From IMG/VR virus record IMGVR_UViG_3300017440_000005, positions 1 to 38,112 of that record: 38,112 bases of DNA; one strand, written 5' to 3'. The DNA is from a virus. The position numbers were made by a program, and so were the translations under genes. Within the stretch, counting starts at the first letter, position 1, and each line of letters opens with the position of its first letter. The notes below the pieces were generated by a model that saw only the letters and a list, made by a program, of their open reading frames with translations, ran no database searches and was not told the origin of the DNA. Below, one piece after another: positions 4,851-9,117 of this stretch.

Positions 4851-5044
4851 CCACCTCTACCCAGCAAGCGGCAATAGGCGCAACACGCTTTCGGCGCATT
4901 GAACCGAGCGACACATACTCAGGCCTTACCGCGATCGGCCTCCCCTGCGGACGAGAATGGGTCACAATGAGCTACGGTGATGCAGCCGATGCCGCCCTAC
5001 TCGCCAAGCTAGACGAGATACCCGCTACTGAGGTGAGGCAGTGA
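4847..5044 (+). CDS. hypothetical protein (65 aa)
   Basis: ATGA overlap upstream, GTGA overlap downstream. Confidence 0.45.
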   Translation: MTTSTQQAAIGATRFRRIEPSDTYSGLTAIGLPCGREWVTMSYGDAADAALLAKLDEIPATEVRQ

Positions 5045-5358
5045 CGCCGCCTGAGTTGGACCGCCGCCTGTCCAAGAAGGTGGAAAGCGAGCGATGCATA
5101 CAGTTGAGCGTCGCTGATCTCGATATGCTGGTTGAGAGCGGCGCGCTCGATACCTTCCGGCTCTATGCAGCCAAGTGGCAGAAAGACCAATGCCGAGCAA
5201 GAAACGTCCGAAACCGCTCTATCAGCGCGGCATCTACAAGCTCTACGCCCGTGAAGATCGCGCGAACCTCGAAATTGTCTTCTACGACGACAGCCTCCGA
5301 CGCGAACGAAGCATTAGCGCGGGCACGAGCGATCACGCAGCCGGCCAAGCGAAACTAG
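5041..5358 (+). CDS. uncertain ORF in the excisionase position, overlapping the integrase 5' end
   Basis: GTG start coupled to the preceding stop, but the frame stays open about 170-185 nt into the integrase gene; may be real or an out-of-frame high-GC artefact. Confidence 0.3.
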   Translation: MTPPELDRRLSKKVESERCIQLSVADLDMLVESGALDTFRLYAAKWQKDQCRARNVRNRSISAASTSSTPVKIARTSKLSSTTTASDANEALARARAITQPAKRN

Positions 5359-6422
5359 ACCAGATATTCCTGGGGTCGCAACAGAAGCTTTGCAAAACGT
5401 GCGGGCGTCCGTTCGACGGTGATGGCTCCCCGCTGCTGTCACAGGCGATCACCGACTATCTGCTGAACAGCACCCACAAGGCTGGGTATAACGCCACGCG
5501 CGGGCGTCTGGCACACGTCATCACCTACGTGGCTGAGACGAACCCGCTGGTGACGTGCGCGCAGATAGACGAGCGCTGGGCGAACGCCTTTCGCAAATGG
5601 CTGGCGGCTAAGCCGATCGTGGAGGCAGTGAGCGGCAAGACGCGCGATCGGAGCATCGGCCACATTGAAGGTGTCGTGCGCCAGCTCATCGCCGCGATCA
5701 ACGCCACTCCGCACCAGCAAGCGACGTTCAAGGCCGGCGCTGCTGCCGAAGTGGCGCAGTCGCCCACCCACCGTGCGGACGTGAAGACGCTGGCGGCGAT
5801 GTTCCGCTATTGTCTCTATCCTGACGCGCGCACGCCCAAGGAAGCTGAGTGGCGGCGGAAGGAGCGCGAAAACCTACTGCGCTACCTACGCGCCGCGGTC
5901 GCCACCTGGGCGCGCCCGGAAGAAATCTTCGACCTTGGCGCAGGGCAGTGGTTCAAAGCGGCTCAGGTGCTCAACCTCAACCCGCCCGGCCGACGCCAGA
6001 CGAAGAAGTATCGCACCACCATCCCGGTCGCACGGCAGTTCGCGCCAGAGCTTGACCGCATGGGTAAGCACTACATGCCGGTAATCCACGTCCGCTCAAC
6101 GTGGGCGGGAATGCGTAAGGCAATCGGCTTGCCAACCACGCGGGGCGAGAGCGGCGAAAAGCTGATCCGCCGCAGCATGGCAACGCTGGTGCGTCGTCGC
6201 ATCGGTGAGGAAAAATGGCGGCAGGGCGAGATGATGCTCGGCCACGTCAAGCACAGTATCAGCGACATTTACGCCGTCCCGGACCCCGCCAATCTGGGCC
6301 TCGCGCTGGCTGAAACCGAAGCGATTATTGACGAGATTTGCGCCCTCGTTCCGGGCTCTTACCGCAAGTTTACCGCAGACGGGTCGGAGCTAACGGTTGT
6401 GGAGGGCGGGCTAAGTGGTTGA
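5175..6422 (+). CDS. int: tyrosine recombinase / phage integrase
   Basis: 415 aa; C-terminal LGHVKHSISDIYA (His...Tyr box), WARPEEIFDL Arg box, IRRSMATLVRR; lies directly beside a tRNA-derived att core. The start could also be ATG 5190. Confidence 0.85.
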   Translation: MAERPMPSKKRPKPLYQRGIYKLYAREDRANLEIVFYDDSLRRERSISAGTSDHAAGQAKLDQIFLGSQQKLCKTCGRPFDGDGSPLLSQAITDYLLNSTHKAGYNATRGRLAHVITYVAETNPLVTCAQIDERWANAFRKWLAAKPIVEAVSGKTRDRSIGHIEGVVRQLIAAINATPHQQATFKAGAAAEVAQSPTHRADVKTLAAMFRYCLYPDARTPKEAEWRRKERENLLRYLRAAVATWARPEEIFDLGAGQWFKAAQVLNLNPPGRRQTKKYRTTIPVARQFAPELDRMGKHYMPVIHVRSTWAGMRKAIGLPTTRGESGEKLIRRSMATLVRRRIGEEKWRQGEMMLGHVKHSISDIYAVPDPANLGLALAETEAIIDEICALVPGSYRKFTADGSELTVVEGGLSG

Positions 6423-6431
6423 TTTGGCTAG

Positions 6432-6477
6432 TGGAGCGGGTGAAGGGAATCGAACCCTCGTCGTAAGCTTGGGAAGC
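6432..6477 (-). other. attP core: 3' portion of tRNA-Gly(CCC); not a complete tRNA gene
   Basis: Minus-sense reads GCTTCCCAAGCTTACGACGAGGGTTCGATTCCCTTCACCCGCTCCA. This gives an anticodon loop TTCCCAA, a T arm GAGGG-TTCGATT-CCCTT, the acceptor 3' strand CACCCGC, a discriminator T and CCA. There is no D arm or 5' acceptor strand upstream. Confidence 0.75.
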
Positions 6478-6499
6478 CTTCAACGTGTGGGATTTCTGC

Positions 6500-6780
6500 G
6501 GCATTTTCACCTACCACACAGAGGAACATACGCGGACAGGATCGCGAACGGGCTGGCAACATCACCAGCTATTACCGCAGTTTTACCGCGCTAGGTGCTG
6601 CGCCGTTCCGCATATATGAAAACGGAGGCTGAGGTTTAACATCCCCGTGGCTAGGCCGCGGTTGCCAGTCTGGCGGTTGACGCTTCGTAGGGCGCGCAGC
6701 CGCAACCCTCCACGTCCAGCAACGCGGTGTTCCCACGCTGTAAAATAACGATCGCGGCGTTGCGATCGGCATTGTCGTGA
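6500..6780 (-). ncRNA. putative omega RNA (reRNA) scaffold of TnpB; extent approximate
   Basis: By analogy with characterised TnpB systems, the scaffold overlaps the tnpB 3' end and the right end. Stems seen: CGATCGC/GCGATCG (6749-6768), GCTGG/CCAGC (6552-6569), long-range CTGCGG/CCGCAG (6496-6501 with 6575-6580) and GTGTGG/CCACAC (6485-6490 with 6514-6519). Confidence 0.4.
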
Positions 6781-7850
6781 TAACCGCAGGTCGTGCACGA
6801 AAACACCGCTTGGCTCTTACGGCTTTTCTTGTCGACCTCCCCGCACGAAGAACACGTCTGCGAGGAATATGCGGCGTTCACCTTTACTAAGCGGTCAGCC
6901 TTGTACGAGAGCATCCACTCAATCTGATGCCAGCCGACTGACAAGATCGCCCGGTTCAACCCTCTTTTCTGGGCAACATTCTTTCCGGGCGCTACAGCCG
7001 TCCCGGCTGCGCTGGCAGTCATAGCCGTAGTTCGCAGGCACTCTATCACTACCGTGCCATAACGACGGGCAATCAGCGTTGTCGTGACATGCGCCCAATG
7101 CTTACGCACGCGGGTTTGCTTGGCCCTCAACGCTGCAACCCGCCGCTGCGCTTTGGCGTAACGACACGATCCTTTGCAACGCCTGCTCACCGTCCGCTGC
7201 GCTCTAGCGGCTCTTTTGTCGAGTACGGCTATTGCTGGCGGCAAGCTGTACGTGGTGCCATCCGAGAGCGCCAAAGGTAGCGAAACGCCGCGGTCGATCC
7301 CAACCGCCAAAGGCTTAACCGTTTGGCTATCAGGCACGTTGCAACCTAAGCTGACCTGCCAACCCTGAACAGAACGAACGAACGTGACTTCCCGAATATC
7401 GGCTGGCAACGCCCGAGTCAGCCGCAGCTTTACCCACCCAAGCTTTGGCACCCAGATTGCAGCCCAACGCTTATTAAGTTGTTCAACCTTCACGTCGCGG
7501 CCAGCGAAGGAGAAAGCGTCTCGCACGCCCTTCTTCTTAACGTTAGGGAAGCCTGCACCTGCTTTCCACATGCGCTGATATGCTGTGTCTAGGTCTTTAA
7601 GTGTCCGCTGTACGGCAGCTTGCGGAACCTCCCGGATAAAATCGAAGGTAGCGCGCAGCTCCGTAAGTTCACGGGACTGGCTCGTGTAGTTGAGGAAGCT
7701 GCCGGTCTTAGCCCGATACTGCCGCCAGAAATCTCGCCGCTGCTCTAACGCCAAGTTCCACACCAAACGGCAAACCCCGGCATACTGCGCTAGCAGCCCG
7801 GCCTGTGTTTGCGTCGGGTATAGTTTAAAAGCGTAGCCGCGATATGCCAC
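6651..7850 (-). CDS. tnpB: TnpB, RNA-guided DNA endonuclease (IS200/IS605 OrfB family)
   Basis: 399 aa; N-terminus YRGYAFKLYPTQTQ; RuvC candidates VGIDRG (D), VVIECL (E), NADRNAA (D); zinc finger CSSCG...CTTCG; GTG start preceded by AAGGA. Confidence 0.9.
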   Translation of the reverse strand: MAYRGYAFKLYPTQTQAGLLAQYAGVCRLVWNLALEQRRDFWRQYRAKTGSFLNYTSQSRELTELRATFDFIREVPQAAVQRTLKDLDTAYQRMWKAGAGFPNVKKKGVRDAFSFAGRDVKVEQLNKRWAAIWVPKLGWVKLRLTRALPADIREVTFVRSVQGWQVSLGCNVPDSQTVKPLAVGIDRGVSLPLALSDGTTYSLPPAIAVLDKRAARAQRTVSRRCKGSCRYAKAQRRVAALRAKQTRVRKHWAHVTTTLIARRYGTVVIECLRTTAMTASAAGTAVAPGKNVAQKRGLNRAILSVGWHQIEWMLSYKADRLVKVNAAYSSQTCSSCGEVDKKSRKSQAVFSCTTCGYHDNADRNAAIVILQRGNTALLDVEGCGCAPYEASTARLATAA

Positions 7851-8172
7851 ACATTCCTTCTACCACATCCACCCTTGACCGCAACAAGAACGTGACAAGT
7901 GCGTGGGTCGTGCTATGGTGTTCAGGCTGTAGCGACGTGGATGGACACGTGGTTCGAATAGCCTGCGACCGGATAGCGCGAGACTTTTGCGGTAGGCCAC
8001 TGCATCAGTCTCAAACTTGAAACTCGGTACTCCGTTGTGATGAGTGGATCGCCTCCACGAAGCAGCGGGTGACGAGCTAACGGGAGGAGCCGAGTGGCGC
8101 TCGGTAAAACGCAGAGCCGGTATCAAGCCCGGCCTACAGCACCTCTACCCCCTCCCCCACCCTTCGCATACA

Positions 8173-8195
8173 CTCTCCCTATCGACTCGGGAGAG
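8173..8195 (-). terminator. hairpin downstream of the last lysis gene (possible terminator)
   Basis: CTCTCCC (8173-8179) pairs with GGGAGAG (8189-8195) around a 9-nt loop, about 50 nt after the stop at 8246; no clear U tract. Confidence 0.35.
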
Positions 8196-8245
8196 CAGCA
8201 TGGGTGAGCAGCACGATCCACCGCCAGGATGCTTGGGAATGCTGT

Positions 8246-8452
8246 TTAGCTGGGTTCCTTCTGCGTTACGGTCACATCCCCGCTATTGGTGGACGCGACT
8301 GGCGTCTTTGGGCGGAACGTCCCGAGCACGCCGATAAGACCGGTCATGATGGCGAGGTCGGCAGGCTTGCCGGTGAAGGCTCCCAACCCGGACAGCACGA
8401 CAATCGCAGCGATCAGTGCTAGGAAGGCAATCAGGTTCTCACGCTCAGTCAT
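8246..8452 (-). CDS. small two-TM membrane protein (holin-like; last gene of the lysis cassette)
   Basis: 68 aa from ATG 8452 (ATGA overlap with the endolysin stop); hydrophobic segments LIAFLALIAAIVVLSGLGAF and LAIMTGLIGVLGTF. Confidence 0.55.
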   Translation of the reverse strand: MTERENLIAFLALIAAIVVLSGLGAFTGKPADLAIMTGLIGVLGTFRPKTPVASTNSGDVTVTQKEPS

Positions 8453-9117
8453 TGCATAGCCTTTGCAAGCTTGGAGTGATAGTCGAAGCGTGCGTAACCT
8501 GGGCCGTTGTAGCCTTTGGCGAACGCGCGGCACGTTTCAGGATCACTCGACAGCGCGCGGATAGCCTTCACCAATCCGAACGTTTCGACATAGCGGCATA
8601 GCGCTTCGTAGTGACCGTATTCGCCTTCCCGCATAGCCCAAGGCATTGCCGTCTCGTCTAGGTAGCCGAGCGCCTTCCAGTGCGATCCCATGATCTGAAA
8701 CCGGCCCCAGCTCGCGGATTGAAAGGCGGCATCCGGGTCTTTGCCGGCCGCGTCCGCCAGCTTCTGCCAGCTACTCTCGCCATAGCCGCCTGCCGACGCG
8801 TTGCTGTAGGTGCACACCGACCACTTGCCTTGCGTGAGGCGATGAAAATAGTGGCGCTCGAACAGGATTTTGGGACGGCCAAGGTCGTCGTATGCGCTAC
8901 CCCCACTTTCCACCTTGGCCACGGCCATCACCTGCTTGCGAGTGCAGCTAAGGCGCTCAGCGATGCCGTCGATCTGATCGGACGTGATAGCCGGCGCAGA
9001 GAGGTTGCTGAACGCCGCTAGAAGCGCGTTGCGGGTGGCGGGGCCGTACTTGCCGTCTACCCCGATGGTGATTGCGCCGTGCTCATTGAGCCAACGCTGT
9101 AGGTCAGCGACGTTCAT
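8449..9117 (-). CDS. endolysin: peptidoglycan-binding domain + N-acetylmuramidase (DUF3380-type)
   Basis: N-terminal LQRWLNEHG...DGKYGPATRNALLAF (PG_binding_1 pattern); KVESGGSAYDDLGRPKILFERHYFHRLT and SWGRFQIMG match the muramidase/DUF3380 family. Confidence 0.85.
   Translation of the reverse strand: MNVADLQRWLNEHGAITIGVDGKYGPATRNALLAAFSNLSAPAITSDQIDGIAERLSCTRKQVMAVAKVESGGSAYDDLGRPKILFERHYFHRLTQGKWSVCTYSNASAGGYGESSWQKLADAAGKDPDAAFQSASWGRFQIMGSHWKALGYLDETAMPWAMREGEYGHYEALCRYVETFGLVKAIRALSSDPETCRAFAKGYNGPGYARFDYHSKLAKAMQ

Follow-up and report, generated by a model that had tools for sequence, protein, structure and literature searches.

Here we describe a tnpB gene of the IS200/IS605 family and its predicted guide RNA in a 38,112-nucleotide (nt) stretch of virus DNA, positions 1 to 38,112 of IMG/VR virus record IMGVR_UViG_3300017440_000005. 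The whole of this stretch is referred to below as the window. We suggest that the gene and its omega RNA are probably a stranded, non-mobile remnant of a tnpB-only (IS1341-type) insertion sequence (IS), which sits as a potentially active passenger at a junction between mosaic phage modules. The window belongs to a P22-like temperate phage, as P22 portal, NinB, RusA and DnaB helicase are all present in a Pfam search of its 103 open reading frames (ORFs) of at least 95 amino acids (aa). The local order is lysis genes, a non-coding cassette (8260-7851), tnpB with the omega RNA (7850-6636), 45 nt, and a module of phage attachment site and integrase (attP-int, 6590-4996). The features of the TnpB element and its immediate flank are as follows.

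6651-7850, minus strand: tnpB ORF of 399 aa, from a GTG start codon (7850) to a TAG stop codon (6653-6651)
6636-6810, minus strand: predicted omega RNA (reRNA) scaffold, from covariation; the 5' end is approximate
6739-6721, 6714-6681 (inner hairpin 6708-6690) and 6660-6648, minus strand: conserved omega RNA helices, mapped from alignment columns to the window
6636-6646, minus strand: right-end terminal motif GGGGATGTTAA, with the transposon boundary just after 6636
6620-6635, minus strand: predicted 16-nt guide ACCUCAGCCUCCGUUU, placed by the right-end boundary; a longer guide would reach ~6616
6591-6635, no strand: orphan flank of 45 nt that includes the guide and lies outside both the IS and the attP/int module

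A full-length TnpB with conserved catalytic residues

As judged by profile searches and alignment, the ORF at 6651-7850 on the minus strand encodes a full-length IS200/IS605-family TnpB that looks catalytically intact, and its activity is predicted. The initial annotation, which was made from the letters alone, had already named it as such, and the profile search that it proposed bears this out. HTH_OrfB_IS605 (5e-13), OrfB_IS605 (1e-14) and the zinc-ribbon family Cas12f1-like_TNB (4e-17) follow one another along the protein, all over their curated cut-offs. In addition, the NCBIfam family guided_TnpB matches with 243 bits (cut-off 100) and PHROG 506, 'transposase', with 7.5e-84.

The RuvC residues that had been picked out by eye are D186 (GIDRG), E270 (VVIECL) and D362 (NADRNAA). 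They occupy invariant columns in an alignment of 28 sequences, i.e., the window and 27 relatives, and the zinc-finger residues C333/C336/C352/C355 are likewise invariant, so both parts of that earlier observation hold. A phmmer search against the PDB finds the TnpB of ISDra2 (8bf8/8exa/8h1j; E=6.5e-32). Its motifs GVDVG, TEHL and DRDENAA, which we take to hold D191, E278 and D361, line up with the three acidic residues. For D191, the position is given in Karvelis 2021 (PMC8612924). A structure prediction had also been proposed as a check. The best Foldseek match of the AlphaFold2 model is the TnpB ternary complex 8h1j (3e-19), but the model itself is poor, with a predicted local distance difference test (pLDDT) score of 66 and RuvC segments below 50, which is too low for judging active-site geometry.

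The protein sequence is under purifying selection, as estimated from the ratio of nonsynonymous to synonymous substitution rates (dN/dS). Between the window gene and its closest relative, L056, this ratio is 0.14-0.20, with dS saturated at 1.6-2.2. (L-numbers, L003-L077, are the labels of the related loci and contigs used for comparison.) The exact protein was found at one locus only, in this phage context, and two more assemblies, from different samples, hold the identical sequence. The source samples are ERZ27250520 and SRR6987551, and SRR12131175 for L056. No TnpA accompanies it in the window, since none of the 103 ORFs gives a Pfam match to Y1_Tnp or Resolvase. Thus, the earlier statement that neither a Y1 nor a serine TnpA is present stands.

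The omega RNA scaffold, the right end and the predicted guide

Covariation places the omega RNA scaffold (6810-6636) in the last ~175 nt of tnpB and on to a point 15 nt beyond its stop codon. We aligned the last 240 nt up to the right-end boundary in 20 sequences. The RNAalifold consensus of this region has 38 pairs, 14 of them with compensatory changes. In the named 22-pair structure, 94.9% of the cells are paired, compared with 37-56% when the partners are slid, and its covariation score of 0.514 compares with 0.143 or less when they are slid; none of 500 shuffles reaches the observed values. The single-sequence fold is unexceptional (z = -0.65), so the evidence for the scaffold is comparative. 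Nevertheless, the window sequence can form all of the covarying helices. The terminal hairpin (6660-6648) carries the tnpB stop codon in its loop.

The right end is defined by homology. One Paracoccaceae metagenome-assembled genome (MAG) holds 11 copies of an element with 58% identity, and when these copies are aligned the identity ends exactly after ...GGGGAAGATGTTAA. Among the 19 relatives with sequence beyond the stop codon, the right end reads GATGTTAA in 16 and a close variant in the other three (GATGCTAA, GATGTTA and GATGTTGAA), and the DNA past the motif is unrelated in each of them. The window reads TAG-CCACGGGGATGTTAA up to the boundary and ACCTCAGCC... beyond it. Therefore, the right end stops at 6636, 15 nt beyond the stop codon. 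Both the hairpin at 6660-6648 and the GGGGATGTTAA terminus at 6636, the features by which the right end of an IS is recognized, are conserved in the clade.

The initial annotation had implied an omega RNA in the 3' flank, to be searched for over 6480-6800 on the minus strand, with the RNA ending near 6480-6520. An omega RNA is indeed present by covariation, but it lies in the 3' end of the gene instead. A location in 6480-6650 is ruled out by the right-end boundary and by homology of the flank to contig L062 up to 6590, and the end that had been expected is off by ~100-140 nt.

In ISDra2, the reRNA consists of the tnpB 3' end and the right end, followed by ~16 nt of flanking DNA as the guide (PMC8612924). 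By analogy with this arrangement, we infer that the guide in the window is ACCUCAGCCUCCGUUU, read from 6635 to 6620. The segment that contains it, 6591-6635, is probably the leftover of the site that once held the element. As an 18-mer, the guide matches in the window only itself and one site with three mismatches and no TAM (transposon-associated motif). As a 20-mer it has no match in IMG/VR and one in the Joint Genome Institute (JGI) metagenome contigs; the latter falls in an unrelated coding sequence with neither a TAM nor other homology, and we judge it to be chance. The earlier suggestion of an action against competing phages has thus found no support so far, with no guide target in the window, IMG/VR or the JGI metagenome contigs.

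Separately, Rfam gives a sub-threshold nadA match (23 bits, E=0.03) on the plus strand at 6633-6707, i.e., on the strand opposite to the terminal hairpins of the omega RNA.

Loss of the left end and the TAM

Relatives of the element have a left end of ~85-110 nt, often with a GC-rich hairpin and with TCATC before it. In the complete copies (L003, L005-L007, L009-L021, L019, L044, L046-L049), TCATC always precedes the left end and GATGTTAA always closes the right end, and the phage-borne relatives L067 and L070 have TCATG instead of TCATC. These comparisons point to TCATC, or at least TCAT, as the candidate TAM of the clade.

Upstream of 7850 in the window, we found neither a left end nor a TAM, and no TCATC adjoins the gene. 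The sequence there comes from the phage cassette. The part of the cassette in common with L060 and L061, two contigs without tnpB, extends to ...GGTAGAAGGRAT(GTG), ~5 nt from the GTG of tnpB, and the Shine-Dalgarno (SD)-like GAAGGA before the start is cassette sequence as well. The same two cassette blocks are found in L056, whose TnpB is the nearest relative (65% aa identity to that of the window, with an identical C-terminal tail, ASTARLATAA). In L056, a 32-nt stretch similar to the 5' leader of other clade members comes next, and then the start codon. Because the upstream sequence is cassette-derived in both, the left end and the TAM are gone in both, though the junctions are different.

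The alignment with related loci that had been proposed as a check thus fixes the right end at 6636, but it yields no left end and no empty site. An empty site was not found in IMG/VR or the JGI metagenome contigs, and neither were several copies that would point to mobilisation. Without a left end, a TAM or a TnpA, the element cannot transpose, and there is no joint of TAM and target for it to cleave. In systems of this kind, the TAM is the target motif of TnpA, and the donor joint left by TnpA excision is the natural target of TnpB (PMC8612924). The initial annotation regarded the locus as a self-contained module and as a possible homing or retention device. The first view fails because the left end and the TAM are missing, and the second because the canonical donor-joint cycle cannot run without a left end, a TAM and a TnpA.

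The flanks are mosaic phage modules

The flanks of tnpB are non-coding over 173 nt on the 3' side (6478-6650) and 395 nt on the 5' side (7851-8245), in agreement with the sizes first reported. That account treated both flanks as part of the element. Instead, homology shows 7851-8260 and 6355-6590 to be mosaic modules rather than transposon DNA. On the 5' side, 7851-7949 and 8110-8260 are 79-91% identical to L060 and L061, and on the 3' side lies the attP module. The gene itself is absent from contigs that have the neighbouring modules in common (L060, L061 and L062), which upholds the view that it is accessory cargo between the lysis genes and attP. L060 and L061 have only the cassette and a few early genes in common with the window; the endolysin and the small ORF preceding it have no counterpart in L060, and the integrase-like ORF of L060 is unrelated. 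A megablast search against GenBank phages gave a match limited to the 47-bp core of the attachment site, with no phage relative otherwise.

The region had also been described as AT-richer than its surroundings. The direction is weakly right (GC content of 58.0% for tnpB, 54.4% for the 3' flank and 58.2% for the 5' flank, against 61.2% for the whole window), but the dip is small, and 9.5% of windows of the same size as tnpB are equally low or lower.

Relatives of the window TnpB were found at 12 IMG/VR loci. The phage-borne ones (L070-L077 in 13 contigs, L067/L068, L058, L059 and L044-L055) are 57-64% identical and sit in tight intergenic gaps. One is seen in 13 contigs of the same phage, where it separates the portal gene from a collagen-like gene, and others adjoin Sf6-type terminase, Mom or SSB/HNH genes. 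From these contexts, the clade seems to be largely phage-borne. In L058, GATGTTAA also occurs at ~1820-1840, ~170 nt upstream of its tnpB, either by chance or, perhaps, as the right end of a previous copy that has been deleted.

The attP and integrase-like module

The module on the 3' side of tnpB has the following features.

6431-6477, minus strand: attP core, a 47-bp 3' piece of a tRNA
6359-6376, plus strand: arm-type repeat TTACCGCAAGTTTACCGC, within the 3' end of the integrase-like ORF
6572-6589, plus strand: arm-type repeat TTACCGCAGTTTTACCGC, at the outer edge of the attP module and conserved in L062
5175-6422, plus strand: putative integrase of 415 aa, assigned by position

Compared with glyU of E. 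coli, the core reads to us as part of a tRNA-Gly(CCC). ARAGORN found no complete tRNA. Mesorhizobium phage vB_MseS-P1 has the identical 47 bp at a distance of 79 nt from its tyrosine integrase gene. Since there is phage DNA on both sides of the core, it is an attP and not a prophage end. The 18-nt pattern TTACCGCANNTTTACCGC occurs in exactly two direct copies in the window, one on either side of the core, where 0.01 would be expected by chance. These copies are probably arm-type binding sites that delimit the attP to ~6355-6590.

The protein of 5175-6422 is 99% identical in L062, where it occurs together with the core and the arm repeat. It matches no family in Pfam, NCBIfam, PHROGs or the PDB beyond a weak Phage_int_SAM_5 (E=0.012), and may be a very divergent tyrosine integrase. 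An LGH...Y pattern is seen at its C-terminus. Overall, L062 is 95% identical to the window over 4996-6590 and unrelated past 6590, so 6478-6590 is the outer arm of attP.

The non-coding cassette

On the 5' side of tnpB, the cassette contains the following features.

7851-8260, plus strand: non-coding cassette of ~410 bp, on the opposite strand to tnpB and outside the TnpB element
7892-7919, plus strand: promoter-like site, GTGACA-16-TATGGT with an extended -10
7926-8140, plus strand: candidate 215-nt cloverleaf-shaped RNA, with closing stem 7926-7932/8134-8140 and hairpins 7935-7950 and 8116-8133
8142-8162, plus strand: C-rich tail
8173-8195, plus strand: hairpin

The cassette is itself a mosaic module by homology, as it is found in otherwise unrelated phage contigs (L060 2752-3078, L061 7982-8472 and L056 1-232). 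Its promoter-like site is the sole sigma-70-like site in 6300-8500 and is directed away from tnpB. Seven nt past the -10, a 7-nt strand is present in four of the four homologues, as GCTGTAG in three and as GCTGCGG in L061. Its pairing partner, 120-210 nt downstream, is CTACAGC (CCGCAGC in L061), which makes two compensatory pairs. The hairpin after the 5' closing strand covaries as well (ACGT/ACGT in the window, GCGT/ACGC in L060), and a GCCGG/CCGGC hairpin abuts the 3' closing strand. In unconstrained minimum free energy folds, the closing stem is kept in all four sequences, with cloverleaf-like shapes, and the fold of 7920-8150 on the plus strand (z = -2.64) is better than 199 of 200 shuffles. 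We therefore regard 7926-8140 as a candidate RNA gene that would be unrelated to the TnpB mechanism, from a comparison of four sequences. The cassette is the less explained object of this interval.

The interior of the candidate RNA is highly variable between the homologues, and in L061 a bona fide tRNA-Gln lies directly 3' of it. A tRNA, an intron-bearing tRNA and a tmRNA were considered and rejected, as ARAGORN found nothing in the cassette, relaxed, intron and tmRNA modes included. At the gathering score, Rfam gives nothing for the window, L056, L060 and L061 save the tRNA-Gln of L061. A sub-threshold Twister-P5 match covers the 3' part of the candidate RNA (8081-8132, plus strand; 22 bits, E=0.1). 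Neither L056 nor L060 conserves the matched core, and this match and the nadA match above are thus both probably due to chance. The same is probably true of the weak matches to tRNA-Sec and Deinococcus Y RNA in an Rfam E-value scan of L060. We also used GGGTGGGGGAGGGGGTAGAGG as a search handle for more cassettes, and the two extra matches that it gave (L064 and L065) are unrelated.

Possible mechanism and alternative explanations

Taking these results together, we favor a stranded remnant that might still be active. If tnpB is expressed, its transcript would be processed into the omega RNA, and this RNA would be bound by TnpB. The complex would then be expected to cut double-stranded DNA in which a TAM (TCATC or at least TCAT, as in the relatives) is followed by ACCTCAGCCTCCGTTT. 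The element's own copy would be spared, since the guide sequence there follows GTTAA and not a TAM. The passenger would have been carried into the junction of the cassette and the attP-int module, or kept there, by recombination between phages, and presumably has no current role.

Several findings weigh against this explanation. The relatives from which the TAM is deduced are only 57-62% identical to the window. No sigma-70-like promoter was found on the tnpB strand in 6300-8500. Residue 271 of TnpB (codon ~7040-7038), directly after the catalytic E270, is Cys where at least 90% of the clade has Arg (VVIECL compared with VVIERL). However, ISDra2 has His at this position, and R271C is thus not obviously disabling. 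The ORF has been kept from its first codon behind an SD supplied by the cassette, an outcome that a random deletion would rarely give and that hints at selection for expression. Finally, the tnpB of L056 adjoins this cassette too, through a junction of its own, so the association is recurrent or old.

The last two of these findings bear on a different explanation, in which the TnpB-omega RNA pair without its ends has been domesticated by the phage, i.e., selected as a nuclease or DNA binder with a fixed guide against a host or competitor sequence of TAM and ACCTCAGCCTCCGTTT. We regard this as unlikely, even though the precise removal of the left end, the fusion of the ORF to a phage-supplied SD, the recurrence in L056, the purifying selection and the intact scaffold and catalytic residues all favor it. 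There is also a precedent in phage-borne, exapted TnpB homologues, the TldR proteins, which are reportedly nuclease-dead repressors of prophages associated with guide RNAs. The arguments on the other side are that no target was found in the window, IMG/VR or the metagenome contigs, that the guide is merely the DNA adjoining the right end, as in any IS copy, and that the tnpB strand has no recognisable promoter. Moreover, the purifying selection could stem from a mobile past. Because dS between the genes of the window and L056 is saturated while their cassettes differ by ~10%, independent arrivals or allele replacements are likelier than simple co-inheritance of one gene.

This idea can be put in two narrower forms. 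An early exaptation of an active nuclease is compatible with the precise replacement of the left end, the recurrence in L056 and the purifying selection, and we consider it about as unlikely. In the more specific form, a P22-like alphaproteobacterial phage lineage has captured and selected such end-less TnpB-omega RNA pairs at one and the same position, back-to-back with the RNA cassette (as in the window and L056), as a fixed-guide nuclease against a competitor or host sequence. For this the chances are slimmer. If a selected fixed-guide nuclease proved to be the right explanation, it would be the active-nuclease counterpart to the nuclease-dead TldR exaptations. Were the end-less copy shown to be expressed and under selection, it would illustrate in nature how a phage begins to exapt an active TnpB.

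It is improbable that the pair is instead a dead remnant, no longer expressed or active, whose intact look is due to a recent loss of function. The missing promoter and the R271C change beside the catalytic Glu would fit this, as would an omega RNA whose single-sequence fold is no better than shuffles and whose terminal hairpin, compared with the closest relatives, has lost 1 nt and contains a C·A mismatch. Against it, the ORF is full length with every clade-invariant residue, all covarying helices can form, and the identical sequence recurs in the two further assemblies.

A complete, self-contained IS, with its left end in 7851-8240 and its omega RNA in 6480-6650, acting as a homing or retention device for itself, is very hard to believe: an intact TnpB between non-coding flanks, a TCATC at 8043-8039 and a 12-nt imperfect inverted repeat (8030-8041 with 6616-6627) speak for it, but both blocks of the 5' flank occur in contigs without tnpB, the right end stops at 6636 by homology with the attP module in common with L062 beyond (6478-6590), IMG/VR gave no match to the predicted empty-site joint CACTCATCACCTCAGCCTCC, and there is no TnpA. 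For the same reasons, i.e., the presence of 7851-7949 in tnpB-less contigs and the joint without a match in IMG/VR, we rejected an IS that would span 6636-8038, with the TCATC at 8043-8039 just outside a left end at 8038 and with flanks that, once joined, would re-form a GGAGGC...GCCTCC hairpin.

Thus, we keep to the stranded remnant, a case of a TnpB that has outlived its transposon ends. As a discovery it matters little, because tnpB genes are abundant, phage contigs often carry members of this clade, and the mechanism is already established. Its use lies in a corrected annotation, with positions for the omega RNA scaffold, the right end and the guide, and with TCATC as the candidate TAM for the clade.

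Comparison with known systems

The protein has a RuvC/TNB core that is homologous to that of the type V-F CRISPR-Cas12f nucleases. It differs from these in being monomer-sized and in having a guide fixed by the flanking DNA. No CRISPR array was found in the window, where there are no array-like repeats, no CRISPR direct-repeat family at the Rfam gathering score, and no cas genes in Pfam. We also considered an IStron and rejected it, since an Rfam E-value scan of 6200-8400 gave no group I intron match and the 5' flank is the cassette on the other strand.

Like TldR, the window protein is a TnpB homologue that a temperate phage carries together with a guide RNA but without transposon ends. In contrast to TldR, it keeps the whole catalytic triad and its full length, with no RuvC loss or truncation, and neither a target gene nor a partner gene such as flagellin was identified.

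The TnpB of ISDra2 from Deinococcus radiodurans has the same domain order, and the D-E-D triad of RuvC and the CxxC...CxxC zinc finger align with those of the window protein. In both, the guide RNA scaffold comes from the 3' end of the gene and the right end, with the guide taken from the adjoining flank, as described for ISDra2 (PMC8612924) and predicted here. The two proteins are ~25-27% identical, and a 15-aa insertion after the catalytic Glu sets them apart. In the window, almost all of the scaffold falls within the ORF. The loop of its last hairpin holds the stop codon, and only 15 nt separate the stop from the right end. The TAM also differs, being TTGAT in ISDra2 compared with the TCATC proposed for the window, and unlike ISDra2 the window element has neither a tnpA nor a left end.

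Within the clade itself, complete tnpB-only (IS1341-type) copies are found as the multi-copy element of the Paracoccaceae MAG (L008-L021) and in Acetobacteraceae genomes and IMG/VR contigs (L003, L005-L007, L019, L044-L049). They differ from the window element, which is at one locus without a left end or TAM, in that they have a ~105-nt left end, with a GC-rich hairpin in it and TCATC before it, and occupy many sites. What they have in common with it is 57-62% protein identity, the right-end motif GATGTTAA and the same covarying helices.

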